This document shows, piece by piece, positions 4,378 to 28,535 of a stretch of 64,000 bases of DNA. Each line of letters opens with the position of its first letter. Within the stretch, counting starts at the first letter, position 1. The notes beneath the pieces were generated by a model, which saw only the letters and a list, made by a program, of their open reading frames with translations, searched no databases and was not told where the DNA came from. The stretch is from positions 19,226 to 83,225 of the forward strand of contig PBDA01000044.1 of the NCBI GenBank assembly GCA_002718345.1, given 5' to 3'. The position numbers and the translations under genes were made by a program. Source of the stretch: Rhodospirillaceae bacterium (lineage in GTDB: Bacteria > Pseudomonadota > Gammaproteobacteria > Steroidobacterales > Rariloculaceae).

Positions 4378-5496
4378 ATGAACAAACGAATGATCAAAGC
4401 TAACTTTTATCTTGCTATTACATCGATGGGTATAGCTTTATCAGGAAATACCCAAAACGCTTCGTCAAAGTTTGTTGTTTCAGGATCTGCAGCTAAAGCA
4501 ATGTTGGATACTACATCTATCAACCTTGAAACGGCTGAAAAAATCACGATGGCTTGTGAGCGTTTAGCCGAAGAAGAAGAAGTCAGCATTAGTGTTTATG
4601 TTATTGATAATGATGGTAATAATGTATATATGCACCGAATGGATGGTGAACGTTGGGTAAACACAGCTACTGCAGAAATGAAGGCGCAAACAGCGTTGAC
4701 AATTCGTGGTCCCTCCAAAGAAAGAATGAACCAAGTAATACGCAACCCTAGTGAGGAATGGCAACAAATAGAGCTAGGCGTATTTTCTAATTCGGGTGGT
4801 CTCCCTATTATTGTGGATGATCAACTAATCGGTGCTATTGGGGTTGGTGGATCGGCACCAAGGGTTGAGGAAGGATGGAGTGATGAGATTTGTGCGCATA
4901 AGGCTATGACAGAAGTGATGGGACCACAGCCGCCTCTAGCAGAAGATATTCCACGCCCAAGAACTCCTACAGTTGCTCCAGTTCCGCGGTTTTCAGTAGA
5001 AACACCAACATCTAATCTTCCACCAGAATTTGTGGTCTCAGGGGATGCAGCAGCAGAGATTAGAAATGGAGCCCAAATTTCAGGTGATGCTGCAAGAAAT
5101 GTAGCTCAAGCCTGTCGTGCATGGTCAACAGAAAGGGAAGACACGATGTCATTAGTCATTTTAGATCCCTCGGGCGTGGCTGTTCATGGAGAGAGAATGG
5201 ACGGACAGGTTAATACTGGAATCCAAGCTGCCATGCTTCGAGCTCAAACAGCCCTGCAAAGTCGCGACCCAACCTCAGTACGTGGTGCCGGGTTAGCTAA
5301 TAGACCTTATGGTCTACCCCGTTCTGTTCTGTTATTCGAGTGGCACTTAGAACCGGGTGGACTACCAATAGTCGTTGATGGTCAAATGATAGGTGCGATA
5401 GGTGTGGGTGGAAGTAAGAATGATGAAGCCTGTGCTATTGCAGGACTTCAATCAGTTTTTGGTGATCGAGTTGCAGTGCCCGTTTACCCAAACTGA
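4378..5496 (+). CDS. Secreted protein with two tandem GlcG/HbpS-like (DUF336) domains
   Basis: 372 aa with a signal peptide. The motif GGLPI(I/V)VD-Q(L/M)IGAIGVGGS occurs twice, once in each half. The halves are joined by the Pro-rich linker PQPPLAEDIPRPRTPTVAPVPR. Confidence 0.75.
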   Translation: MNKRMIKANFYLAITSMGIALSGNTQNASSKFVVSGSAAKAMLDTTSINLETAEKITMACERLAEEEEVSISVYVIDNDGNNVYMHRMDGERWVNTATAEMKAQTALTIRGPSKERMNQVIRNPSEEWQQIELGVFSNSGGLPIIVDDQLIGAIGVGGSAPRVEEGWSDEICAHKAMTEVMGPQPPLAEDIPRPRTPTVAPVPRFSVETPTSNLPPEFVVSGDAAAEIRNGAQISGDAARNVAQACRAWSTEREDTMSLVILDPSGVAVHGERMDGQVNTGIQAAMLRAQTALQSRDPTSVRGAGLANRPYGLPRSVLLFEWHLEPGGLPIVVDGQMIGAIGVGGSKNDEACAIAGLQSVFGDRVAVPVYPN

Positions 5497-5543: not shown

Positions 5544-5918
5544 ATGAGTTTAAAAATAAAAGGTACTTTAGCCATATTGGTATTCATGGCGATTAATCCA
5601 ATTGCTTCTGGACACCACTCACATGCCAACTATGTTGAATCAGAATGGTTGTTTCTTGAGGGTACTGTAAGTGAAATCCATTGGATGAACCCTCATAGTT
5701 GGATCTACCTTAATGTAACTGATGCTAATGGACAGCCAAGACCTTGGGCTATTGAAGGTGCTAGCGTGACACAGCTTCGCCGAGATGGATGGACTCAAGA
5801 AAGTATTCAGGTAGGCGATGAACTCCGTATGAGATGCCACCCATTGAAAGATGGTTCTAGAGGTTGTCTACTTGGCTACATAACGCTAGATGATGGTTCA
5901 GAAAAAGAGTTTGACTAA
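5544..5918 (+). CDS. Small secreted His-His/NPH protein, paralog 1 (I believe this is the family listed as DUF6152, unverified)
   Basis: The ATG at 5544 is preceded by AAGGAG; the track start at 5526 is an upstream TTG. The signal peptide ends ...NPIASG and is followed by HHSHANY. The core EIHWMNPHSWIYLNV is shared with the genes at 7660, 25096 and 26217. Confidence 0.7.
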   Translation: MSLKIKGTLAILVFMAINPIASGHHSHANYVESEWLFLEGTVSEIHWMNPHSWIYLNVTDANGQPRPWAIEGASVTQLRRDGWTQESIQVGDELRMRCHPLKDGSRGCLLGYITLDDGSEKEFD

Positions 5919-5958
5919 ATTTATTATTCAATCCGACTTATTAGGGGAAAAAGAAAAA

Positions 5959-6747
5959 ATGCGTCCATTAAAATTAAATATGCTCCTATCGCTCATAATC
6001 GGTTTAGTTGTTTCAGGGGCAGCTTATGCACAAGGCTGGTTTAAGTACGTTAGTGAACAAGATCAGTTTATTGTTAATTTCCCCTCAGACCCCGAAGTAA
6101 TTGAGGAAGATTACGTAACGGAATTTGGCGCAACTATTCCTTCACGTATCTATAGCGTCCAAAACCCAAATGGACGCTATGCGATTACAGTCATAGACTA
6201 CACGGTTGCTGAGCAAGCACACGAAGACCTGTGCCTTCAAATTGCCGCTGAAACCGATATAGTTAGTCCTAATACTTGCAGGGGGCGTGGACATTTCAGA
6301 GATATTAGAGGTGCTATTGCCTATGAATCCTGGAATATTCGCAAAAGAAATAGTGGTGAAATCACCTATGATGCTTTTGGACAGGTAGATGGCGTACCGG
6401 GCCATCAAATACAAATTCTGCACCCAGATCAATCTCGTTCATTCATTGGACTTTACATGCTTAATCAGCGACTTTATCTCTTGGAAGGAACAGTGCCGGA
6501 TGACTACCCTCCTCCAGGACTGTTTCAACAATCTTTAGGCATGCTTGATGAGATGGGAAGACGAATTCGATTTGAAGCTGATGATGAAGGGAATTACTCT
6601 CGTGTACAAACCCGTTATGAATACGTTGGTGTTGAAGATCCAATCACAGGAGAACCGGAATCAGAATTTTCTATAAGTAGTGATGGTCGTCTCAGACAGC
6701 CTAACGAATTTACTGGAGCATGGACACCAGATTCGTCCGAAAATTAG
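5959..6747 (+). CDS. Hypothetical secreted protein
   Basis: The ATG at 5959 follows GGGGAAAAAG, and the signal peptide is MRPLKLNMLLSLIIGLVVSGAAYA. The track start at 5890 overlaps the upstream gene and is unlikely. I recognise no family motif. Confidence 0.55.
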   Translation: MRPLKLNMLLSLIIGLVVSGAAYAQGWFKYVSEQDQFIVNFPSDPEVIEEDYVTEFGATIPSRIYSVQNPNGRYAITVIDYTVAEQAHEDLCLQIAAETDIVSPNTCRGRGHFRDIRGAIAYESWNIRKRNSGEITYDAFGQVDGVPGHQIQILHPDQSRSFIGLYMLNQRLYLLEGTVPDDYPPPGLFQQSLGMLDEMGRRIRFEADDEGNYSRVQTRYEYVGVEDPITGEPESEFSISSDGRLRQPNEFTGAWTPDSSEN

Positions 6748-6823
6748 TAATAATAAAAATCTTCACTATAAGAAGGATAATAAGGATAGAATCTTTTAAA
6801 AAGATAACTGCCTAGGAGGAAAA

Positions 6824-7648
6824 ATGAGCCACCGGGGAATAACAAGACCTAAAAATAATTCTATGATTAAACTTTTGGTGATACTTACCTTAGGGATTTT
6901 GTTAAGTTTTCGTTTTGCACTAGGACAAGACTCACCACCAAATATTGGGGGGGTGTGGAGTACAACAGTCACGGCTATAGATCACCCTAACTGGTCGGTT
7001 GAGGAGCTATTTGCCTGTAACTGCACATCGGAGACCTATGAGTACCTTGATGAGTTGCTTATGCCAGAAAATGATCACCTATCAGCTCTAGAAATTGAAG
7101 AAGCAATCAGCACTTATAATCGTGCAGCTATTCGTGAACTCTATACACAGGAACAAATAGATTATCTCGCTGTCTTTGATCATGCGGACGACCCTTCTAT
7201 CCAGTGTGAGTTATTTGGGGTATTTCGAACCATATTGCATAACGACCCGATACTGATTGAGCAATCCCAAGACCAAATCATAATTAGACCAGAAGATTTG
7301 GCCGCTGATCGTATAATTTACATGGATGGTCGAGGTCACCCAGAAAATGGGCCTTTGTCTGCAATAGGGCATTCGATTGGTTGGTATGAGGGAAATACAT
7401 TAGTTATTGAGACCGCCAATATCTCGGCCAATATTGCGGAAGATGCACTGAATATCCATAACGCTGACAATGCCCGTACAATTGAGCGCTATACTTTGAG
7501 TGAAGATGGGACGCGGCTGCATGGGCAATTCACATTAATTGATCCCATAATGTTTAGTGAGCCACTTGTTTTAGAACGTACTAGAGTTTTCACGCCAGAG
7601 GTTGAGCTATTGGATGCCCCTTGTGAATCAATCTCTGGTGAAATGTAA
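6824..7648 (+). CDS. Secreted ~250-aa partner protein, paralog A (uncharacterised family)
   Basis: AGGAGG lies 5 nt upstream of the ATG, and there is a signal peptide. It shares GVW, IQC, R-I-I-YMDGR, GHSIGWYEGNTLVIET, IDP and a C-terminal C-E motif with the genes at 25469 and 26623. Confidence 0.65.
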   Translation: MSHRGITRPKNNSMIKLLVILTLGILLSFRFALGQDSPPNIGGVWSTTVTAIDHPNWSVEELFACNCTSETYEYLDELLMPENDHLSALEIEEAISTYNRAAIRELYTQEQIDYLAVFDHADDPSIQCELFGVFRTILHNDPILIEQSQDQIIIRPEDLAADRIIYMDGRGHPENGPLSAIGHSIGWYEGNTLVIETANISANIAEDALNIHNADNARTIERYTLSEDGTRLHGQFTLIDPIMFSEPLVLERTRVFTPEVELLDAPCESISGEM

Positions 7649-7659
7649 AAGAGGGAAAA

Positions 7660-8103
7660 ATGATCAATAAAACTTTAATGCTTTTTTGTTGGGCAACAAT
7701 ATTACTCTCATTGCCTTCCCAAGCTCATCATAATCCAGCTGCTCACTATATCGTTGACGAACGCGTAGAAATCAATGGGATTGTCACCGAGTTCAGACCA
7801 GTGAATCCGCACTCACGTATTTACTTAGATGTAACAAACGATGAGGGCGAAATAGAACAATGGATGGCCGAAGGTGACAGTATTATTAATCTCAGACGAG
7901 CAGGCTGGACTGATGATCAATTTAAACCGGGAGACGAGGTTCAAGTCTTAGGGCGCCCTTCAAGATTTGGATATAACTTAGTTGAATGGACCTTTATCAC
8001 TTATTCTGATGGAGTTGAAGTTGGTGGTGGAAATGGCCAGTTCGGCGAAAGAATGAGGTTTGTTCAAACTCGTCTGGATGAGTATCGCCAACAACGCAAC
8101 TGA
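7660..8103 (+). CDS. Small secreted His-His/NPH protein, paralog 2
   Basis: 147 aa. The signal peptide ends ...LPSQA and is followed by HHNPAAHY. The core is EFRPVNPHSRIYLDV, with a later LRRAGW...KPGDEV motif. Confidence 0.7.
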   Translation: MINKTLMLFCWATILLSLPSQAHHNPAAHYIVDERVEINGIVTEFRPVNPHSRIYLDVTNDEGEIEQWMAEGDSIINLRRAGWTDDQFKPGDEVQVLGRPSRFGYNLVEWTFITYSDGVEVGGGNGQFGERMRFVQTRLDEYRQQRN

Positions 8104-8119
8104 TAAAGGAAAGAACTTT

Positions 8120-9052
8120 ATGATCACAAGGCGCCAGATTCTGGCGAACACTGGTCAACTATGCTTGTTGGGAGCATTTACGCCAACTCATTTACGCGCT
8201 CAAATCACCCTTATGCAGAGGGCAATCCCTAAAACTGGCGAATACTTACCAGTCATTGGTCTTGGAACCTATCGCACATTTAACGTTGGGGACGATCCCA
8301 ATGAACTTAACCCTCTTCAAAGGGTTCTAGAGTTGTTTTTTAGACATGGCGGCACAGTGGTGGATTCATCCCCAGCATATGGCCCATCTGAAGCTGCCTT
8401 CGGATATCTAGCAGAACGAATCAATTTGCCTGACGATTTATTTGTAGCTACCAAAGTTCGCGCAGGTAGCCATGCTGAAGGTATTCGTCAAATGGATGCT
8501 TCAGCACAAAAAATGGGCGTTGAAAATATTGATTTAATGCAGGTACATAGTTTGGCTGACTGGAAAACACAACTACCCATACTTAAAGAGAGAAAAGCAC
8601 AGGGCATTTATCGTTATATAGGAATTACTGCCTCTCGTGTGGAACTTTACGATGATTTCATCACTATTATGAATAATGAACCACTCGATTTTATTCAAAT
8701 TAACTATAGCGTTGCTGAAAGACAAGCAGAAGAAAGAATACTTCCGTTAGCCATGGACCGAGGAATCGCAGTATTTGTAAACCGTCCTTTCGTTGCGGGC
8801 GCTTTATTCTCACATGTTCAAAGTAAAGCTCTGCCAGACTGGGCAACAGAATTTGACTGTGATAGCTGGGGACAGTTCTTTCTTAAGTTTGTGCTCTCAC
8901 ATCCAGCTGTCACAGTAGCTCTTCAGGCAACATCAAACCCTCAACACCTTTTAGATAACTTAAGTGCAGGTCAAGGTTTGCTTCCAAATACAGAGCTTCG
9001 CCAACGTATGGTTGATCTGATTGGGCTAACTGGACGACCCCCCTGGACCTAA
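8120..9052 (+). CDS. Aldo/keto reductase with a twin-arginine (Tat) signal peptide
   Basis: From the ATG at 8120 the protein begins MITRRQILANTGQLCLLGAFTPTHLRAQ, which contains a T-R-R-x-I-L Tat motif. The AKR body includes GLGTY, DSSPAYG, IDLMQVHS and RYIGIT. It is a paralog of 18831..19766. Confidence 0.75.
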   Translation: MITRRQILANTGQLCLLGAFTPTHLRAQITLMQRAIPKTGEYLPVIGLGTYRTFNVGDDPNELNPLQRVLELFFRHGGTVVDSSPAYGPSEAAFGYLAERINLPDDLFVATKVRAGSHAEGIRQMDASAQKMGVENIDLMQVHSLADWKTQLPILKERKAQGIYRYIGITASRVELYDDFITIMNNEPLDFIQINYSVAERQAEERILPLAMDRGIAVFVNRPFVAGALFSHVQSKALPDWATEFDCDSWGQFFLKFVLSHPAVTVALQATSNPQHLLDNLSAGQGLLPNTELRQRMVDLIGLTGRPPWT

Positions 9053-9077: not shown

Positions 9078-9881
9078 ATGAGCACTCGCGGAACCTTAAC
9101 TTTCTTAGCTAAAAAAAGCCCACCGCCCGTTTATCAAGCATCGGTTGGTGGCAAGAACGCTCGACTAGAATTAGTTGGAAACTATGAGCAACGACTGATG
9201 CACATTTCTGATGGGCGAAAAATGAAAGAAACTTTTACACTAGATCATCATGGTTTTCAGCTATTAAACCATGCAACAACAATGAAAGACTTTTATGACT
9301 CTAACCTAAGAAAAATAATTTACGAAACAGAATGCAAGAAAATAGTGCAAACCGCCACCGGGGCTGAGGATACATTCGTTTTTGATCACACCTTACGCTC
9401 TGGGGATGAGGAGCTGAGAAAACAAAAACTAAGTCGTGAACCAACAACAGTTATTCACAATGATTATACGCCTCGCTCAGCTAAAAAACGTCTTCAGGAT
9501 TTTATGGGATCAAATGCTCAAAAATTCATACAAAAACCATTCGCTATAGTAAACCTGTGGCGACCAATTAAAAAAATTGAATCTTTCCCTATAGCTGTTT
9601 GTGATGCGAATAGTGTCTCCCCAAAAAACTTAATCCGCGCAGAAAGAAGAGCTAAAGATCGTATAGGAGAGATCTTCGTTGCACATTTCAACCCTAAACA
9701 ACGTTGGGTTTATTTCCCCGATATGAGTCCAGAGGAAGTCTTGTTAATCAAAACTTATGATTCCCGAGAAGATGGAAGAGCCCGATGGTGCATACATACT
9801 GCAGTTGATATAGAAAACACACCAGAATCTGCAGCTCCAAGAGAATCAATAGAGTCTCGTATATTTGCCTTTGGGGTGTAA
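9078..9881 (+). CDS. CmcJ/NvfI(AsaB)-like oxidoreductase family protein (tentative)
   Basis: 267 aa. The layout is LDHHGFQLLNH ... TGAEDTFVFDHTLRSG ... VIHNDYTP ... NLWRP, as I recall for this family. No signal peptide. Confidence 0.5.
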   Translation: MSTRGTLTFLAKKSPPPVYQASVGGKNARLELVGNYEQRLMHISDGRKMKETFTLDHHGFQLLNHATTMKDFYDSNLRKIIYETECKKIVQTATGAEDTFVFDHTLRSGDEELRKQKLSREPTTVIHNDYTPRSAKKRLQDFMGSNAQKFIQKPFAIVNLWRPIKKIESFPIAVCDANSVSPKNLIRAERRAKDRIGEIFVAHFNPKQRWVYFPDMSPEEVLLIKTYDSREDGRARWCIHTAVDIENTPESAAPRESIESRIFAFGV

Positions 9882-9987: not shown

Positions 9988-10722
9988 CTAACGCCTTATA
10001 GGGAGCAGAAGTTCACTGCCGTTATCCCTATGTATATCAAATGACCTTATAGTTATCGCCATAAAATTGTAATAGCCGATTAAACCAACCAAATCCATAA
10101 CACCTTCATTACCAAAAACGTTAATCGCCTTTGAAAATGTATCAGAACTCACCTTATCTTCATTTATTGCTTCACGTGTAAACTGAATGATTGTTTTTTC
10201 CTCTTCCCCAAGACCGGGAATTTTCATGGATTCATCCAGAGGTTTTCTGAATCTAACAATATCTATAATCTCCTGCTGCAACCCATTTCGAGTTGCAGCA
10301 GGCTCGTGTGCGGTATAAATATACTGATTATCTACTTCACGCGCTGTCGTAATAATCGTTAGCTCAGTTAGACGTTGATCTTTTGCAGATCCAAAACGCA
10401 CCCGACTACGAACATCAAAAATAGCTTCCGCTAATACTGGGCTGTTCATTAACATGCCTATAGGGCCACTCAAGCCGCTCTCATAACCTGTTCCAGGTGA
10501 TACATAAGTATCAAAAGCTTCCTGTCCAACAGCATCTAAATTATCTCTGAGTACCATTGGCAAACGAGCTCTGGAATCTTCATGGATATCTGCAGGAACA
10601 TTTTCTGCTGATAAAGGTGATAACAAAAGATAGTCTGCTTCTGATGCATATGATTTATATATCACTCCAACCCCAAAATAGAGCCCGATCAGGCACATGA
10701 AGGAAAAAATTTTTTTATTCAT
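9988..10722 (-). CDS. Secreted carboxymuconolactone decarboxylase (CMD/AhpD-like fold) family protein
   Basis: 244 aa with a signal peptide. It has the CMD-type segment LTELTIITTAREVDNQYIYTAHEPAATRNGL. It has no Cys, so it is not a CxxC AhpD. Confidence 0.55.
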   Translation of the reverse strand: MNKKIFSFMCLIGLYFGVGVIYKSYASEADYLLLSPLSAENVPADIHEDSRARLPMVLRDNLDAVGQEAFDTYVSPGTGYESGLSGPIGMLMNSPVLAEAIFDVRSRVRFGSAKDQRLTELTIITTAREVDNQYIYTAHEPAATRNGLQQEIIDIVRFRKPLDESMKIPGLGEEEKTIIQFTREAINEDKVSSDTFSKAINVFGNEGVMDLVGLIGYYNFMAITIRSFDIHRDNGSELLLPIRR

Positions 10723-12597: not shown

Positions 12598-12674
12598 TGG
12601 TGGTGATGGGTGGACTTGAACCACCGACCTGCGGGTTATGAATCCGCCGCTCTTACCAACTGAGCTACATCACC
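12598..12674 (-). tRNA. tRNA with anticodon CAT (elongator tRNA-Met, or tRNA-Ile2 if C34 is lysidinylated)
   Basis: The reverse complement is GGTGATGTAGCTCAGTTGGTAAGAGCGGCGGATTCATAACCCGCAGGTCGGTGGTTCAAGTCCACCCATCACCACCA (77 nt). It folds with a perfect 7-bp acceptor stem, a 4-bp D stem (GCTC/GAGC), a 5-bp T stem (GGTGG/CCACC), the anticodon loop TTCATAA and an encoded CCA. G1-C72 are paired, so it is not an initiator tRNA. There is one A31-C39 mismatch. Confidence 0.9.
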
Positions 12675-22559: not shown

Positions 22560-24425
22560 GTGAAACTCCGGCTAAAGAAAACAGTTCTTTTAATTTCATC
22601 AATAGCGTGCGTTACGCTGCCATTTGAGTTATTTGCTCAAACACAGATGCTAGTTATTAAAGGAGGCACTCTAATAGATGGCAATGGAGGCAAACCCACA
22701 CCAAATACAGTTGTAATAATGCAGAACAACCGAATTATTAGTGTCTCAAATACCGATGAAGCTCAATATCCTGACAACAGCATCATTATTAATGCGGAAG
22801 GAAAATTCATTCTGCCAGGTCTATGGGATTCTCAGGTAAGTTATAACTGGTATTACGGCGAAGTAATGTTGAATTACGGGATCACATCAACCATTGATGT
22901 AGGAAACTCTGGTGAAATTGCTGTTCCACACAGGGATGCGGTACATGCCGGAATCCTTCGTGCTCCAAGAACCTATACTGGGATCTCAAGACTTAACCGA
23001 ATTCCAGATGGAGGAACCGGACTAGAGACAATTTTGACGCCTGCCAGGGACCCCCAATCAAATCAAGAAGCACGGGCACTAGCACAGGCTTTTATTGATG
23101 CAGGTGCTGATGCGCTGATGTTTAATGATGGGTCTATGCCTTTTGAATACTACTTAGAGGCAATAGATGTTGCAGACAGCAATAACACTCCAGTTTTCAC
23201 AAGAAGCTATGGGCCAATTTATGGTCCTTGGGAAGCTGTAGAACGGACAACTCATAATATTCCACATTCAGCGGGTATCTGGCGAGCTGTAACCAATCCA
23301 CTGCCAACTGAAAATGACAAAAGAGATTGGCTGGATATGTATGCTGATTTGGATGATTCTAGGGCCAGAGACCTTATTGATCGTTTAATTGATAACGGAA
23401 CGGCACTCACCCCCACTTTTCAAGCAAACTTTAGAGGATACCCAGCAGACTGGGAACAATTTGAAAAAGAGGATAGGGAGTTTTTTAATAATGCACACCC
23501 AAACTTAATGGCGTACTACCCGGAAGCAAGAAAGCAAGCAGCTCTTAATTTTTATCAACCAAGAGGGCCATGGAATATTGATGAAGAAGAAGTTCGTGCT
23601 CGCAAAATGCACGGGTTTAAAAATGCTTTGCGTTTCCACAAGATGTTTGCAGATTCGGGAGGACGCCTAGTACCCGGTGCAAACACGAATCCTTCACGTG
23701 TCCCAGGAGAAAACTTGCATCATGAAATTGCCGTATTTGTTGAAGCAGGAATAACTCCAATGCAAATTATTCAAGGGGCAACAAAATGGTCAGCAGAAAT
23801 GCTCCTTCTAGGAGATGAAATTGGCACGATAGAAATGGGAAAGTTAGCTGATGTAATCATTGTGAATGAAAATCCATTAGAAGATATTAAAAATCTTCGC
23901 CAAATTGATACCGTTATTATGAACGGTAAAGTTATACCACTAGGATACGATGTATCCTACGAAGATCCATTTCATCGAAATTCTGAACTTAATCCACCTG
24001 TTGAGTCACTACACTGGGTTACCGCCTTTAAAAGAATTGCCCAGGAAGCAAGGGGATTCAGATTTGTAGGACGCCCACCCGGAGGGCCAGGCACTCCGCT
24101 TCCAAACCCAATAGAAGCGCCTCAACCAGCAATAGAAAAAATTACTCCTGTAATGGTAACTCAAGGCGACCCTACAACAACCATTTCACTTACTGGGTTT
24201 AATTTTGTTTTAAAATCAAGGGTTTACTTTAACGGAACTTCAGTTCCCTATACTCCACTGAGCCCCACTGAACTTGAAGTCATCATCGATTCCAGTCTTC
24301 TTCACGAAGCTGGATGGTCAAATATCGTAATTGTGAACCCTGAGCCTTTAGATCCAGAGCTTGGTTACCCCTGGGGAAATGGCATTTCAAATAAAGCGCA
24401 CCTTATTATCAACTATCGTTATTAG
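22560..24425 (+). CDS. Secreted amidohydrolase-family protein with a C-terminal IPT/TIG-like domain
   Basis: 621 aa with a GTG start and a signal peptide. The N-terminal VIKGGTLIDGNG and C-terminal GTIEMGKLADVIIVNENPL are amidohydrolase hallmarks. The last ~100 aa (ITPVMVTQGDPTTTISLTGFNF...VYFNGTSVPYT...VIVNPEP) look like an IPT/TIG domain. Confidence 0.65.
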   Translation: MKLRLKKTVLLISSIACVTLPFELFAQTQMLVIKGGTLIDGNGGKPTPNTVVIMQNNRIISVSNTDEAQYPDNSIIINAEGKFILPGLWDSQVSYNWYYGEVMLNYGITSTIDVGNSGEIAVPHRDAVHAGILRAPRTYTGISRLNRIPDGGTGLETILTPARDPQSNQEARALAQAFIDAGADALMFNDGSMPFEYYLEAIDVADSNNTPVFTRSYGPIYGPWEAVERTTHNIPHSAGIWRAVTNPLPTENDKRDWLDMYADLDDSRARDLIDRLIDNGTALTPTFQANFRGYPADWEQFEKEDREFFNNAHPNLMAYYPEARKQAALNFYQPRGPWNIDEEEVRARKMHGFKNALRFHKMFADSGGRLVPGANTNPSRVPGENLHHEIAVFVEAGITPMQIIQGATKWSAEMLLLGDEIGTIEMGKLADVIIVNENPLEDIKNLRQIDTVIMNGKVIPLGYDVSYEDPFHRNSELNPPVESLHWVTAFKRIAQEARGFRFVGRPPGGPGTPLPNPIEAPQPAIEKITPVMVTQGDPTTTISLTGFNFVLKSRVYFNGTSVPYTPLSPTELEVIIDSSLLHEAGWSNIVIVNPEPLDPELGYPWGNGISNKAHLIINYRY

Positions 24426-24870
24426 CTTTTGATGACCGCCAACTATCTATGGAAAGCCAATCATAAGAATGCGCTGCAACTAAAATACAGAAGTAAAGTG
24501 TATAGTGCATATTATTGCCAACAGTTCCCCAAGCCTGTCTAGTGGTATTGCCAAAAATCAACACCAGCATCATTAATGCTCCCGTTACGGACATCCAATA
24601 ACTAAACAGTCCCAAGGCCAAAAGAATGCCAAATACAACCTCAAAATAAGGTAAAACCCAAAGAAACGCAGTAACCCAAAGTTCAGGCAGAAAAGAAGGT
24701 GTAGCTATATCGGTAAACAGAGCAACTTGGCTATCAACCCATGCGCCTGTATCACTAATAATTCTCATAAACCCATGAAAGAACATATTGACCCCCAGGG
24801 TTATTCGAAACAGCGCATATGCCATCTGAAAACGGGACGCTCCAACAATACAATGCATTACCCTTCCCAT
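24409..24870 (-). CDS. DoxX-family inner-membrane protein
   Basis: 153 aa with four predicted TM segments. It has a LFRITLGVNMFFHGFMRI DoxX-like N-terminus. Confidence 0.6.
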   Translation of the reverse strand: MGRVMHCIVGASRFQMAYALFRITLGVNMFFHGFMRIISDTGAWVDSQVALFTDIATPSFLPELWVTAFLWVLPYFEVVFGILLALGLFSYWMSVTGALMMLVLIFGNTTRQAWGTVGNNMHYTLYFCILVAAHSYDWLSIDSWRSSKANNDS

Positions 24871-25095
24871 GTTATCTCCCTCTATTCAAGTATTATGTTT
24901 ACCTTGGGAAAATAGAGCTTCGCTTGGCTGGGTGTTTGGGTCAAGCTTAAAACTAAAATTTAGTGGAAAAAATATATGTTGCAGTTCAGAATTAGTGTAT
25001 AAATTTTAATCAAATAAACAAAACAAAACTGGCATTCTTTGATAATAACAAAAAGTTCTCATTTGGAATCTATAGTGGTAAAACGACTTCTTTTC

Positions 25096-25464
25096 ATGGC
25101 TTCAGGCATTTTTATAGTTTTCAGCGGAATTTCTATTAAAGCCCATCATGCAAACTCTATGTATGACAGAGCGTCTAATATCACCATTTCCGGGGTTGTA
25201 ACAAGATGGCAGTTTATCAATCCACATGCAGGCCTATGGTTAGAAGTGACCAATGAAACTAACGAAGCACAAGAATGGTCAGCAGAGTTTCAAGGAACTT
25301 TAGATCTTTATCGTCACTTCCAATTCAATAAAGACACATTTAAGCCAGGTGACACAATCACACTTATTGGGCATCCGGCCAGAACGGGCGGTCCAACTAT
25401 TAGCGCAAGAATAGTAATATTTTCTGATGGAACAGAAGTTGATGTGCGAAGTGCGCCAGACTAA
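25096..25464 (+). CDS. Small secreted His-His/NPH protein, paralog 3
   Basis: From the ATG at 25096 the signal peptide is MASGIFIVFSGISIKA, followed by HHANSMYD. It has the WQFINPHAGLWLEV core and NKDTFKPGDTITLIG. The track start at 25039 is an upstream TTG. Confidence 0.7.
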   Translation: MASGIFIVFSGISIKAHHANSMYDRASNITISGVVTRWQFINPHAGLWLEVTNETNEAQEWSAEFQGTLDLYRHFQFNKDTFKPGDTITLIGHPARTGGPTISARIVIFSDGTEVDVRSAPD

Positions 25465-25468
25465 ATAT

Positions 25469-26188
25469 ATGTTATTCAATTTTTTATCAAAATTTGGAGT
25501 TTACTCACTACTCTCTCTGATAACTGTGGTTTCTGAAGCACAATCCATTCCTGACCTGTCTGGTGTATGGCAAAGAAATTTCCCAGGCGCCTCATCGCTG
25601 GTCTCTGAGCCTCCCATGACCCTCTGGGCACAAGAACGTTTTGACCTAGCCAAACCGCTTCACGGTCCAAGAACTGCATCGGCCACTGAGTCAAATGCTT
25701 CTGAAATTCAATGCCTCCCAATGGGTTTTCCAGGAACTTACTATCGACCAAGACCCTTTGAAATCATTCAGCTCCCAGATAGGATAGTGATGCTTTTTGA
25801 AGTTAATAATTTCTGGAGAATTGTGTATATGGATGGTCGGGATTTCCCAGAAGTCCCTCTACATACTTGGAATGGCTACTCAATAGGTCGTTATGAAGAT
25901 GATACTCTAGTCATTGAAACAAAACATATTCTAGGCTGGGAATCAGAAAATCAGCAAAGGTGGATAGACCGACTTGGGCACCCTTTCAGTGACGAAATAA
26001 CAATTGTAGAAAGAATTAAGCGTGTTGATAGAGACACTCTCACTAATCAAGTCACTATTCATGACCCTATCGCTTATGAATCTACATTAAATGGAACGCT
26101 AAACTTTGCTAGAAGAGATTTTGAACTTGCAGAATTTGTATGTCAGGAACTTATGTTATCTGCTTTACCTGAAATGAGGCCTGAATAA
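25469..26188 (+). CDS. Secreted ~240-aa partner protein, paralog B
   Basis: The ATG at 25469 lies 4 nt after the upstream stop, and there is a signal peptide. It shares long identical runs with 26623..27375: RPRPFEIIQLPDR, PLHTWNGYSIG, TLVIET, DPIAYE, CQELMLS. Confidence 0.7.
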   Translation: MLFNFLSKFGVYSLLSLITVVSEAQSIPDLSGVWQRNFPGASSLVSEPPMTLWAQERFDLAKPLHGPRTASATESNASEIQCLPMGFPGTYYRPRPFEIIQLPDRIVMLFEVNNFWRIVYMDGRDFPEVPLHTWNGYSIGRYEDDTLVIETKHILGWESENQQRWIDRLGHPFSDEITIVERIKRVDRDTLTNQVTIHDPIAYESTLNGTLNFARRDFELAEFVCQELMLSALPEMRPE

Positions 26189-26216: not shown

Positions 26217-26612
26217 ATGGAAACTCAAGCAAAGACCGCTTTAATCTTATGTGCTCTTATATTATTTACTCTAAATACTGGATCTGAGGCACATCATGCT
26301 AACTCCGCTTATGATAGAACAAAATCAATTTCAGTAACTGGCACAGTCACCCAATGGCAGTTTATTAATCCTCATGTTGGAATATTTCTAGATGTCATAA
26401 ATGAACAGGGAAACACTGAAAACTGGTCAGGTGAGTTTCAAAGCGTTCAAGATTTATATAGATTTTTCCGCTGGAATAAAGATACTTTTAAACCCGGAGA
26501 CGAGGTAACAATTATTGGCAACCCTGACAGAAGGCCAAACATGCGGTCAATGTGGACCGAAGCAGTAGAGCTTCCAGATGGCACCCATATCAACGTCAGA
26601 AACGACCCATAA
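26217..26612 (+). CDS. Small secreted His-His/NPH protein, paralog 4
   Basis: 131 aa. The signal peptide ends ...NTGSEA and is followed by HHANSAYD. It has WQFINPHVGIFLDV and NKDTFKPGDEVTIIG. Confidence 0.7.
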   Translation: METQAKTALILCALILFTLNTGSEAHHANSAYDRTKSISVTGTVTQWQFINPHVGIFLDVINEQGNTENWSGEFQSVQDLYRFFRWNKDTFKPGDEVTIIGNPDRRPNMRSMWTEAVELPDGTHINVRNDP

Positions 26613-26622
26613 AGTATTGATT

Positions 26623-27375
26623 ATGAGAAGTCACCGATTAATAGCTCAGACAATTATCCTATTGGTTGGGTTTAGCGTCATAACAAGCACATTTGCACAA
26701 ACTCCAGAACTCTCAGGAGTCTGGCAAAGTTTGTGGGGAGGAAGAGGTGGTCCTAGATACCCAACACTCGCTTCTCCTGATCTCGTAAACGAAGAACCTC
26801 CGCTGACACAGTGGGGTCAAGACCGCTTTGCATTGGCAAAGCCTATTCATGGGCCTAACCCCGCTTCTGCTACAGATTCAAATGCGGCAGAATTATTGTG
26901 TCTTCCAATGGGCATACCTCACGCCTATTTTAGACCGAGGCCTTTTGAAATCATCCAACTCCCAGATCGGGTAGTCATGCTATTTGAGACAGATAATTTT
27001 TGGCGAGTAATTTACACGGACGGACGGGAATTCCCTGAAATTCCTTTACACACATGGAATGGTTATTCAATCGGTCACTATGAAGAAGAAACATTAGTTA
27101 TTGAAACACGTTATTTCATTGGTTGGGAATCGGAACAGCAACAACGCTGGCTTGACCGTTTAGGCTGGCCTCATAGTGACGAATTACGGCTCACTGAAAG
27201 AATTATTCGTATTGATGAGCAAACACTACAAAACAATATCACCATTGATGATCCAATTGCTTATGAAAAACCCTGGAATTCAAGCATCACTTACACATCT
27301 AGAGACTTTGAGCTTACCGAATTTATCTGCCAAGAACTTATGCTGTCTGAGTTACCGGAAATGAAACCAGAATGA
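26623..27375 (+). CDS. Secreted ~250-aa partner protein, paralog C
   Basis: From the ATG at 26623 the signal peptide is MRSHRLIAQTIILLVGFSVITSTFAQ. It is closely similar to 25469..26188 along its full length. Confidence 0.7.
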   Translation: MRSHRLIAQTIILLVGFSVITSTFAQTPELSGVWQSLWGGRGGPRYPTLASPDLVNEEPPLTQWGQDRFALAKPIHGPNPASATDSNAAELLCLPMGIPHAYFRPRPFEIIQLPDRVVMLFETDNFWRVIYTDGREFPEIPLHTWNGYSIGHYEEETLVIETRYFIGWESEQQQRWLDRLGWPHSDELRLTERIIRIDEQTLQNNITIDDPIAYEKPWNSSITYTSRDFELTEFICQELMLSELPEMKPE

Positions 27376-27410
27376 CAGTAAAGAAAATATTCTTCTTCAG
27401 GAGATACTGT

Positions 27411-28535
27411 ATGAAAATTAAAAAAGCTATGGGCTTAGTTATTTCACTGTGCTGTTTATCTTTCACTGTTAGCGCACAGATGGAAGTACCCCAATACAAA
27501 TTTGATGCAGAATGGCCAAAGTTGCCGCTACCTAATCAATGGTGGATGCAAGGTATTACTGGTTTATATGTTGATCATGAGGACAATATCTGGGTACTTA
27601 ATCGCCCAAGCAACCTTAATAATACAGAAAATTATGCTCAGCTTGATCCGCCGGCAGCAGAATGCTGCATAGCTCCACCAGCTGTAATTGTTTTTGATAC
27701 GGACGGAAATGTAATTCGTTCATGGGATACTCAAGAAGGTCACGGTATGATGGTAGATCGTGATGGGTATGTATGGATTGGCTCCGACACAGTGCGAAAA
27801 TTCACATCAGACGGGGAATTAATAGCTGCAATAGAAAGAATTCCAGAAGCCGAACCACCCGAAGGCAAGTACCCATCGGATGTAGAAATTATCGTTGATC
27901 AAATTGAAGAAGTCAGAGCCGATGAAGAGATGAGAGAGTTATATACCATTGATAACTATCTAAATGGCAGGGTGATGGTTTACGACATGGATACGTTAGA
28001 ATTCAAGCGTGGCTGGGGGGCATATGGTAAACCCCTTAGTGAGATCGGCGTAGTGGCTACTGATGGGCCTGCTAATGGAGGGGGCGTTGAGTTTTACAGT
28101 GGTGAGTCTCCTGATAGAGACATTGAAACCGTTTCAACCGATTTTGTTGGACATGTAACCTTAGATCTTTCCAATGATGGCTGGGTCTATGTAGCAGATC
28201 GTCGTGGAAACAGAATTCAAGTGTTTAGCAAGCAGGGAGACTTTCAAAAAGAATTTTTCCTTGCAACATGGACTCGACAACGTGGTTCAGCAGGCGGTGT
28301 GGCTTTTTCTCATGACCCTGATCAAAGATTTTTAATTATTCCTGACATACAAAACAATACAATTTGGATTCTAGATAGAGACGATGGCAACGTTGTAAAT
28401 AGAGTAGGAAGTGCTGGAGACAATGGAGGCCAATTTCATGGCTTACATATGCTCGATGTAGATTCTAATGGGAATATTTACACTGGCGAAGTTCAACAGG
28501 GAGAGCGAGTTCAGCGTTTTCGCCTAATAAATTAA
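27411..28535 (+). CDS. Secreted NHL-repeat six-bladed beta-propeller protein (peptidyl-alpha-hydroxyglycine alpha-amidating lyase-like family)
   Basis: From the ATG at 27411 there is a signal peptide. Repeated blade motifs are DNIWVLNRP, DGYVWIGSD, GWVYVADRRGNRIQVFSKQGDF and NGNIYTGEVQQGERVQRF. Confidence 0.65.
   Translation: MKIKKAMGLVISLCCLSFTVSAQMEVPQYKFDAEWPKLPLPNQWWMQGITGLYVDHEDNIWVLNRPSNLNNTENYAQLDPPAAECCIAPPAVIVFDTDGNVIRSWDTQEGHGMMVDRDGYVWIGSDTVRKFTSDGELIAAIERIPEAEPPEGKYPSDVEIIVDQIEEVRADEEMRELYTIDNYLNGRVMVYDMDTLEFKRGWGAYGKPLSEIGVVATDGPANGGGVEFYSGESPDRDIETVSTDFVGHVTLDLSNDGWVYVADRRGNRIQVFSKQGDFQKEFFLATWTRQRGSAGGVAFSHDPDQRFLIIPDIQNNTIWILDRDDGNVVNRVGSAGDNGGQFHGLHMLDVDSNGNIYTGEVQQGERVQRFRLIN

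Follow-up and report, generated by a model that had tools for sequence, protein, structure and literature searches.

Exported DUF6152 proteins and two families of partners: a two-subunit system with a predicted N-terminal histidine metal centre

Introduction

A 64,000-nt stretch of contig PBDA01000044.1, referred to here in its full length as the window, carries at positions 5544–8103 of its plus strand four consecutive genes, named by their start positions: a small protein (5544), a hypothetical protein (5959), a partner protein (6824), and a second small protein (7660). Similar small proteins and partners occur at 25–27 kb in the same window, and a preliminary description took the locus at 5544–8103 to be a second, deeply diverged copy of the system found there. 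The comparisons reported here bear this out, as all four small proteins of the window belong to the Pfam family DUF6152 and partner 6824 is homologous to the partners at 25–27 kb. On sequence evidence, the locus is composed of two neighbouring pairs, 5544 with 5959 and 6824 with 7660, because the family of 5959 (designated HYP) usually adjoins DUF6152 genes and 5544 groups with the HYP-associated DUF6152 proteins. Both pairs can be assigned to one large uncharacterised family of two-subunit exported proteins. In the explanation that we favour, albeit tentatively, the small subunit would carry a metal centre built on its N-terminal His, most likely containing copper, and set against a ligand-binding partner.

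Although the small subunit has already been catalogued as a domain of unknown function, the pairing with two partner families, the gene fusions, and the placement of a His-His pair at the cleavage site are undescribed in the literature searched.

The DUF6152 subunit and its N-terminal histidines

The four small proteins, all encoded on the plus strand, are found at 5544–5918 (124 aa; HYP-associated type), 7660–8103 (147 aa; paired with partner 6824), 25039–25464 (first pair of the 25-kb locus), and 26217–26612 (second pair). They match the Pfam hidden Markov model (HMM) of DUF6152, PF19649, at 94.6, 76.4, 75.6, and 84.2 bits, respectively, against a cut-off of 27 (E 3e-21 to 4e-27); the small proteins of both loci (4/4) are thus members of one family, as had been proposed. 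Pfam assigns the family no function, DUF6152 is not mentioned in the literature searched, and sequence and profile searches of the PDB with the small protein returned no relatives.

The most conserved feature of the family lies at the predicted start of the mature protein. Cleavage of 5544 is predicted between ASG and HH, giving the mature N-terminus HHSHANY, with an NPH motif 25 residues downstream. The corresponding terminus of 7660 is HHNPAAHY, and the 25039 protein is predicted to be cleaved between IKA and HHANSMY, with NPH 25 residues further on. This arrangement extends across the family: in 221 of 227 unique DUF6152 sequences (97%), His-His stands immediately after a signal-peptidase-type site of the AxA kind. 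Among these 221 sequences, the residue at −1 is A, G, or S in 95% and that at −3 is small or aliphatic, while a hydrophobic core lies ahead of HH in 219. The distance from HH to PH is constant at 26–27 residues, the latter motif reading NPH in 183 sequences. In an alignment of 129 diverse sequences, conservation reaches 98% for H23 and H24, 99% for P50 and H51, 91% for N49, 92% for W68, and 88% for E71. An aromatic residue is kept 6–7 positions past HH, and no Met is conserved in any alignment column.

An AlphaFold2 model of 7660 (mean predicted local distance difference test, pLDDT, 84.1) comprises a signal-peptide helix and five strands, the third and fourth of which are separated by a helix; an additional C-terminal helix (residues 127–146) is a feature of the 7660 type. 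Foldseek comparison of this model with the PDB retrieved only generic oligonucleotide/oligosaccharide-binding (OB) fold domains, namely the anticodon-binding domain of LysRS, SSB, and PriB, with a template-modelling (TM) score on the target of ~0.6. Judged from the model, the small DUF6152 subunit is an OB-fold barrel.

Pairing with the partner family PART

Partner 6824 (6824–7648, plus strand, 274 aa) was compared by BLASTP with the partners at 25–27 kb. It is 33% identical over 157 aa to the partner of the first pair (25469–26188, plus strand; also listed as 25427; E 6e-14) and matches that of the second (26623–27375, plus strand; also listed as 26578) at E 4e-12, which confirms the kinship claimed for it. 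All motifs quoted in the preliminary description were found in the translations: HHSHANY...WMNPHSWIYLNV and HHNPAAHY...PVNPHSRIYLDV in the small proteins, and GVW, IQC, RIIYMDGR, GHSIGWYEGNTLVIET, and a C-terminal Cys in the partner. The family to which these partners belong is called PART below.

The signal peptide of 6824 can be read from the sequence, with cleavage between ...FALG and QDSPP. Its AlphaFold2 model (pLDDT 91.2; predicted TM score, pTM, 0.84) shows, after the signal peptide, a helical domain at residues ~59–137 and a beta-barrel at ~143–256. The best Foldseek matches were CRABP/FABP proteins, avidins, and lipocalins, all of them weak (E from 2e-3 upward, TM ~0.5 on the target); as modelled, and at the level of fold only, PART is a helical cap plus a calycin-like barrel. 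The signature of calycins is a G-x-W in the first strand that packs on a conserved Arg or Lys. In PART, GVW (W45) is invariant in an alignment of 73 sequences, and the invariant residues of 129 diverse partners are C128, C267, R163, E221, R222, and D240, plus glycines and prolines (R163 and R222 at 98–100%). The Arg/Glu/Arg/Asp set is located on barrel strands, while C128 and C267 probably form a disulfide.

When a profile built from 73 partners was searched, 11,878 cluster representatives (50% identity) matched it at E ≤ 1e-3, and 5,759 of them did so at E ≤ 1e-10; the barrel is the conserved portion. PART is therefore a very large family, and one without a Pfam model, a solved structure, or a paper in the literature searched. 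Some proteins of 450–530 residues (P0234, P0242–P0244, P0247, and others) contain two copies of the PART barrel. PADLOC models of anti-phage defence systems matched none of six proteins searched at E ≤ 0.01.

The association of PART with DUF6152 is evident from genomic arrangement. Scanning with the PART alignment, one genome per species, yielded 80 loci, all from metagenome-assembled genomes (MAGs), and neighbourhoods were counted over 85 loci. The hosts are mostly Gammaproteobacteria (Candidatus Rariloculaceae, Woeseiaceae, Arenicellaceae), and some are labelled Terriglobia, Acidobacteriota, or Gemmatimonadales. Calling of open reading frames (ORFs) and HMM searches in the 85 loci gave 174 ORFs with a partner domain and 172 with DUF6152, 54 of which contained both, always with DUF6152 at the N-terminus. 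The first homology search had likewise returned fusions of 320–340 residues (P0103–P0120) in which PF19649 lies ahead of the partner domain. For 73 of the 96 unfused PART genes with sufficient flanks, a same-strand DUF6152 gene was located within 250 nt, typically after a gap of 15–25 nt. Modules also accumulate in arrays, with five pairs and one fusion in 12 kb at one locus, and three fusions and several pairs at another. Furthermore, a tblastn search of 72,556 plasmid records detected the small protein in eight and the partner in the same eight, adjacent to it; the hosts, cultured bacteria, were Novosphingobium, Sphingobium, and Croceibacterium.

The two components also diverge together. The identity between two small proteins follows the identity between their partners, with r = 0.88 over 129 pairs; this mirror-tree value is inflated by shared ancestry, and none of 500 Mantel permutations reached it. 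For paralogues of the same locus, the correlation is 0.82 (n = 72 comparisons), which indicates that pairs duplicate and diverge as units; the congruence of small proteins and partners, raised earlier as a check for co-evolution, was thus observed. By these sequence criteria, DUF6152 and its partner behave as subunits of one exported protein, in an obligate pairing that is realised as separate or fused chains.

HYP, a second partner family

The hypothetical protein 5959 (5959–6747, plus strand, 262 aa) had been regarded as an additional gene enclosed by the system. It is better understood as the cognate partner of 5544, drawn from a second partner family. Its signal peptide can be read from the sequence, with cleavage between ...GAAYA and QGW. 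The HYP family, with 317 homologues and no family name, resembles PART in that neither has a meaningful match to Pfam, NCBIfam, or PADLOC models, even at E ≤ 1 across whole alignments, or a PDB relative in sequence or profile searches. The possibility that HYP is a very diverged PART was rejected, as hhalign returned a probability of 0.7–1.4% and the sole alignable part was one short beta-hairpin motif.

A scan of metagenomes with the HYP alignment yielded 80 loci from marine and soil samples. A same-strand DUF6152 gene adjoins HYP, on one side or the other, in 42 of the 52 testable loci (81%), many HYP loci having no PART gene nearby. The small proteins sort accordingly: the nearest DUF6152 relative from another locus shares the partner type in 61/61 cases for HYP, 75/78 for PART, and 60/64 for fused proteins, and each of the nearest relatives of 5544 from other loci is a DUF6152 protein encoded next to a HYP gene. 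HYP is, as far as these comparisons reach, an alternative partner family of DUF6152, unrelated in sequence to PART.

Two further observations concern the relation between the partner families. One database protein, P0077, is a HYP–PART fusion without an internal signal peptide, and the C-terminal tail of HYP, PNEFTGAWTPD (6690–6747), resembles the start of the mature partner, PPNIGGVWST (6920–6960). Because of this fusion and this likeness, there are hints that HYP and PART were formerly one gene or work together. Many HYP homologues of ~368 aa (P0350–P0380) carry a C-terminal NIPSNAP domain (PF07978).

Lineages of the PART-associated pairs

The preliminary description envisaged at least two old lineages plus one recent duplication within 22 kb. 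The first part of this history was supported. The 6824/7660 type falls in a clade whose 46 pairs are uniformly ordered partner-then-small, with a conserved gap of ~17 nt, whereas the 25-kb pairs belong to a clade ordered small-then-partner; identity between the two lineages is 26–32% for both components. The 6824 type is further distinguished by a longer N-terminal domain of the partner and by the C-terminal helix of the small protein. The two loci are, by sequence, old and separately maintained lineages. The second part did not hold: the two partners at 25–27 kb are only 59–61% identical to each other, below the 78–84% that separates 6824 from its orthologues in other MAGs, and this duplication is consequently also inferred to be old. 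The small proteins 25039 and 26217 are 45–46% identical. Diversification for different substrates or metals, as suggested previously, is plausible.

A predicted N-terminal histidine metal centre

What might such a conserved pair of histidines do? From the secondary-structure string of the 7660 model, NPH is predicted to occupy the loop that joins strand 1 to strand 2, and E71 to end strand 3, a strand paired with the beginning of strand 2. The N-terminal segment, 13 residues long, could, judging from the model, fold back along strand 1. Together, these placements suggest that the three histidines and the Glu can meet at one end of the barrel. The pinning of His to the first two positions of the predicted mature protein argues for a role of the free amino group at that end. 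The histidine brace of copper proteins is a parallel, defined as it is by the amino group and imidazole of an N-terminal His plus a second His (PMC10952591).

In the mechanism that we consider the best explanation, His1 (through its amino group and imidazole), His2, the His of (N)PH, and possibly the Glu of strand 3 would jointly bind one metal ion at an end of the OB barrel. The resulting site would be histidine-brace-like and would most likely hold copper. It would dock on the partner, whose pocket would accommodate a small ligand or substrate, and the pair would be a periplasmic enzyme or binding module that depends on its metal and is probably redox-active. Paralogues would then differ by the ligand that they handle.

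In a bolder version of this proposal, DUF6152 would be a histidine-brace copper centre on an OB fold, in which such a centre is not known to occur. Paired or fused with interchangeable barrel-type subunits that hold the substrate, it would make up a very extensive group of copper-dependent oxygenases or peroxygenases of the periplasm, with which bacteria of marine sediment and soil would convert small organic molecules. In some genomes, CopD/HemJ-like DUF6644 membrane proteins would deliver the copper or the electrons. As a whole, we regard this version as unlikely. Literature searches on an OB fold combined with a histidine brace, and on the brace in uncharacterised bacterial proteins, gave no relevant result.

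Genomic neighbourhood

The ORF listing reproduced the coordinates of the five genes from 5544 to 8120, and thereby the gene order and plus-strand placement given previously. They are separated by 40, 76, 11, and 16 nt, and each of the five is preceded, just 5′ of its start codon, by a Shine–Dalgarno-like purine-rich stretch. Upstream lies a gene for an exported HbpS-like/GlcG protein of two domains (4378–5496, plus strand; PF03928 in two stretches, E 7e-40), whose N-terminal signal peptide is readable. Downstream follow an aldo/keto reductase with a twin-arginine signal (8120–9052, plus strand, 310 aa) and a CmcJ/NvfI-family oxidoreductase without a signal peptide (9078–9881, plus strand; NCBIfam NF041278, E 3.8e-81). 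No terminator-like site was detected on the plus strand between 4378 and 9881, a result that would fit a single operon. Scans for promoters and terminators across 4–11 kb returned sites no more numerous than in shuffled sequence, and an Rfam scan of 3.5–29 kb found nothing but one tRNA gene (12601–12674, minus strand; RF00005, 72 bits).

The identification of 8120 as an aldo/keto reductase exported by the twin-arginine translocation (Tat) pathway, claimed earlier, agrees with its PF00248 match (104.3 bits, cut-off 24) and its TRRQIL twin-arginine start: the protein begins MITRRQILAN, followed by a hydrophobic stretch, and its orthologues begin MISRRQVLAN. The Asp/Tyr/Lys/His catalytic tetrad is intact in the translation (VVDSSPAYG, ATKV, and MQVHSL are readable). 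The predicted export of a folded nicotinamide-dependent enzyme to the periplasm is unusual, and a tightly bound cofactor would be needed.

The run of HbpS-like, small, HYP, PART, small, aldo/keto reductase, and CmcJ/NvfI genes is kept in five other MAG loci (L006, L007, L008, L017, and L018) and partly in L021. In those five, the HbpS-like gene lies directly 5′ of the first DUF6152 gene and the CmcJ/NvfI gene follows the aldo/keto reductase; in L021, the CmcJ/NvfI gene stands directly 3′ of the second DUF6152 gene, with no match to an aldo/keto reductase there. HbpS-like genes occur in 7 of the 85 loci in all, including L009, which has a single-domain copy between two fused modules. An aldo/keto reductase is found directly 3′ only in the same five loci and in L030. 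Judged by distribution, none of the HbpS-like, aldo/keto reductase, and CmcJ-like genes belongs to the core module; they are clade-specific accessories. A gene for a secreted protein of 244 residues with no family match (9988–10722, minus strand) is divergent to the cluster, and occupies the same divergent position in L006–L008 and L021.

Across the 85 loci, the commonest neighbours are NHL propellers (14), sulfatases (12), TonB-dependent receptors (12), and aldo/keto reductases (8), with amidohydrolases, Lactamase_B-fold proteins, and pyrroloquinoline quinone (PQQ) dehydrogenases among the others. DUF6152 pairs are thus found, as judged by family assignment, in regions rich in exported enzymes. 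At the 25-kb locus of the window, an NHL-repeat beta-propeller gene (27372–28535, plus strand; its ScyF NHL match is weak and below cut-off) overlaps by ATGA the stop codon of the partner gene ending at 27375, which suggests translational coupling to that partner. A gene for a DoxX/MauE-like membrane protein (24409–24870, minus strand; Pfam DoxX, E 3e-8) is divergent from the locus, and an exported amidohydrolase with a TIG domain is encoded upstream at 22560–24425; amidohydrolase genes also lie 5′ of DUF6152 arrays in L003, L063, and L078.

In Novosphingobium PP1Y, Novosphingobium humi, Sphingobium TomTYG65, and one MAG, tandem genes for DUF6644 membrane proteins (PF20349) stand beside the module, and in two further loci such pairs lie within 7 kb. 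The pairs are located at L170 5809–6812, L173 4101–5076, L174 8168–9186, L171 1413–2478, L042 396–1351, and L053 15155–16075. DUF6644 has an invariant His and faint matches to DUF2214 (5/12), CopD (2/12), SirB, and UPF0093/HemJ; sequence and profile searches of the PDB gave no relative. We take DUF2214, CopD, SirB, and UPF0093/HemJ to form one Pfam clan, in which case the arrangement would recall the pairing of CopC with CopD. It is possible that DUF6644 is a membrane counterpart that supplies copper or electrons, and its position beside the module lends the proposed metal centre weak support.

Elsewhere in the window, the gene order lptD-surA-pdxA-rsmA-apaH was recognised from protein N-termini at 48297–54485, and the nearest relatives are all gammaproteobacterial MAGs. 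These features suggest that the source MAG is a gammaproteobacterium despite its name, ‘Rhodospirillaceae bacterium’. The GC content of the window is 42%.

Weighing the explanations

Several observations weigh against a copper centre of the histidine-brace type. Known histidine-brace proteins are beta-sandwiches (immunoglobulin-, fibronectin-, or cupredoxin-like), whereas the DUF6152 model is a five-stranded OB barrel. The structural matches of both the 7660 and the 6824 models are weak (best E ~2e-3), and AlphaFold2 confidence is low at residues 21–30 of 7660 (pLDDT 62–68). PART has no conserved His or Met among 129 sequences, and the mirror-tree correlation is, as noted, inflated by shared ancestry. 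No neighbour is universal among the 85 loci, where even the NHL propeller reaches only 14; copA, cueO, sco, and PCuAC genes are not recurrent there. Finally, the link to DUF6644 is seen in only about six loci, none of them in the window. The rival explanations are nevertheless placed below the metal-centre model because of the histidines at the cleavage site, and below its reading as an enzyme or binding module because of the many co-diverging paralogues.

The first rival sees in the pair a periplasmic chaperone or buffer for metal that has no catalytic function: the His-rich OB subunit would capture Cu, Zn, or Ni for exported metalloenzymes or a membrane importer, and the partner would serve as an adaptor. 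This is unlikely on balance, yet it accounts for a good deal. Among OB-fold proteins, only the periplasmic CusF and SilF are known as pure metal binders (PMC10656224), and most bacterial histidine-brace-like proteins, such as CopC, YcnI, and PmoF1, are tied to copper transport (PMC10952591). The neighbourhoods are rich in exported metal-dependent hydrolases (amidohydrolases, Lactamase_B-fold proteins, M20 peptidase), CopD-like DUF6644 pairs adjoin the module in sphingomonads, and the TonB-dependent receptors of 12/85 loci have counterparts in Croceibacterium and Sphingobium. However, six modules within 12 kb, many loci per genome, and deeply diverged partners would be hard to explain by metal delivery, and two unrelated, co-diverging partner families suggest that ligands, and not a single metal, are what the modules discriminate. 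Moreover, no metal transporter or metal-responsive regulator is consistently adjacent in the 85 loci.

A metal-free role is rather less probable still. Here the pair would be a small-molecule carrier or an envelope or stress protein, comparable to the OB-fold BOF proteins or bacterial lipocalins, and His-His would serve pH sensing, processing, or an interface. The fold class of the partner (lipocalin, FABP, avidin) is typically one of small-molecule binders, and a polar ligand could be bound by the invariant Arg/Glu/Arg/Asp of the barrel strands. What is most strongly conserved in the family, however, is a set of three near-invariant histidines at fixed spacing, two of them exactly at the predicted mature N-terminus, a pattern typical of metal sites.

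Binding or trafficking of haem or another tetrapyrrole would assign the OB subunit a CcmE-like role with His and Tyr ligands, the partner barrel holding the macrocycle. CcmE is an OB-fold protein with an HxxxY haem-binding motif, and some calycins bind haem. The conserved aromatic residue 6–7 positions after HH would fit such a site, and the surroundings offer some encouragement: an exported tandem HbpS-like gene, of haem-degrading type, heads the conserved cluster, with the single-domain copy between fused modules in L009; some HYP homologues are fused to NIPSNAP; and TonB-dependent receptors recur nearby. Nevertheless, haem ligation would not need His exactly at the cleavage site, where it is found in 97% of sequences. 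The small proteins have no match to the Pfam CcmE model at E ≤ 0.1, CcmE is absent from the top 50 Foldseek matches of the 7660 model, and HbpS-like genes occur in just 7/85 loci. We consider this explanation improbable.

The weakest reading, a single small–partner–small system into which 5959 was inserted as an unrelated or foreign secreted gene, was rejected as very improbable: although the order small, hypothetical, partner, small is real and 5959 is unrelated in sequence to the partner, HYP adjoins DUF6152 in 81% of testable loci (42/52), many of them without PART nearby, 5544 groups with the HYP-associated type, and the unit of the 6824-type clade is partner-then-small, the upstream small protein being absent from most loci.

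Comparison with known systems

The histidine-brace proteins, which include lytic polysaccharide monooxygenases (LPMOs), PmoB of particulate methane monooxygenase (pMMO), CopC/PmoF1, X325/Bim1, and YcnI with its mono-histidine brace, share several properties with DUF6152. Both groups are exported, and an N-terminal His is exposed by cleavage, as predicted in DUF6152. Both have a second conserved His, which in the known proteins completes a T-shaped copper site of three nitrogens and for which the DUF6152 candidate is H51 (99% conserved, at fixed spacing), and in both a conserved aromatic residue and a carboxylate are present. In addition, the position of the module beside CopD-like genes in some genomes parallels the CopC–CopD arrangement. 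Apart from its fold, DUF6152 differs in having two consecutive N-terminal histidines, an obligate partner (separate or fused), and no linked copper-homeostasis genes, and it has no sequence or Pfam relation to the known histidine-brace families.

CusF and SilF offer a second comparison. Like DUF6152, for which this is predicted, they are small periplasmic OB-fold proteins with a metal site, in DUF6152 a candidate one, at the barrel end that includes His and Trp. In CusF/SilF this site consists of one His, two Met, and one Trp (PMC10656224). The metal bound is Cu(I) or Ag(I), and both proteins operate together with an efflux pump, CusCBA or Sil. DUF6152, by contrast, has no conserved Met, three conserved histidines including those at the N-terminus, and no match to the CusF Pfam model at E ≤ 0.1; genes for resistance–nodulation–division (RND) efflux pumps, adaptors, and outer-membrane factors are likewise not among the recurrent neighbours of the 85 loci.

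PART, for its part, resembles the calycins (lipocalins, FABP/CRABP, avidins) in its export and its predicted antiparallel beta-barrel, and its first-strand G-x-W and invariant Arg recall the calycin signature. One calycin-like protein, ZinT/YodA, is a periplasmic metal-binding protein with a His-rich N-terminus. PART departs from these proteins in its helical insert of ~80 residues, its conserved Cys pair (a predicted disulfide), and the location of the His-rich element on a separate OB subunit, and it has no lipocalin or ZinT match in Pfam.

Proteins that were hypothetical can now be described as a two-subunit system with two alternative partner families, fusions, and a defined His-His/(N)PH metal-site hypothesis. 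This would help to annotate many genes of abundant, mostly uncultured bacteria of sediment and soil (Woeseiaceae, Rariloculaceae, sphingomonads, Acidobacteriota), and cultured carriers exist in Croceibacterium atlanticum 26DY36, with the proteins WP_053833713.1, WP_046903031.1, and WP_053833712.1, and in Novosphingobium humi. Should the subunit act as a chaperone, the OB-fold metal carriers of the periplasm, represented by CusF/SilF, would gain a second type; if copper is bound as in the explanation favoured here, histidine-brace chemistry would reach a fold that is new to it and small-molecule substrates of a new class.

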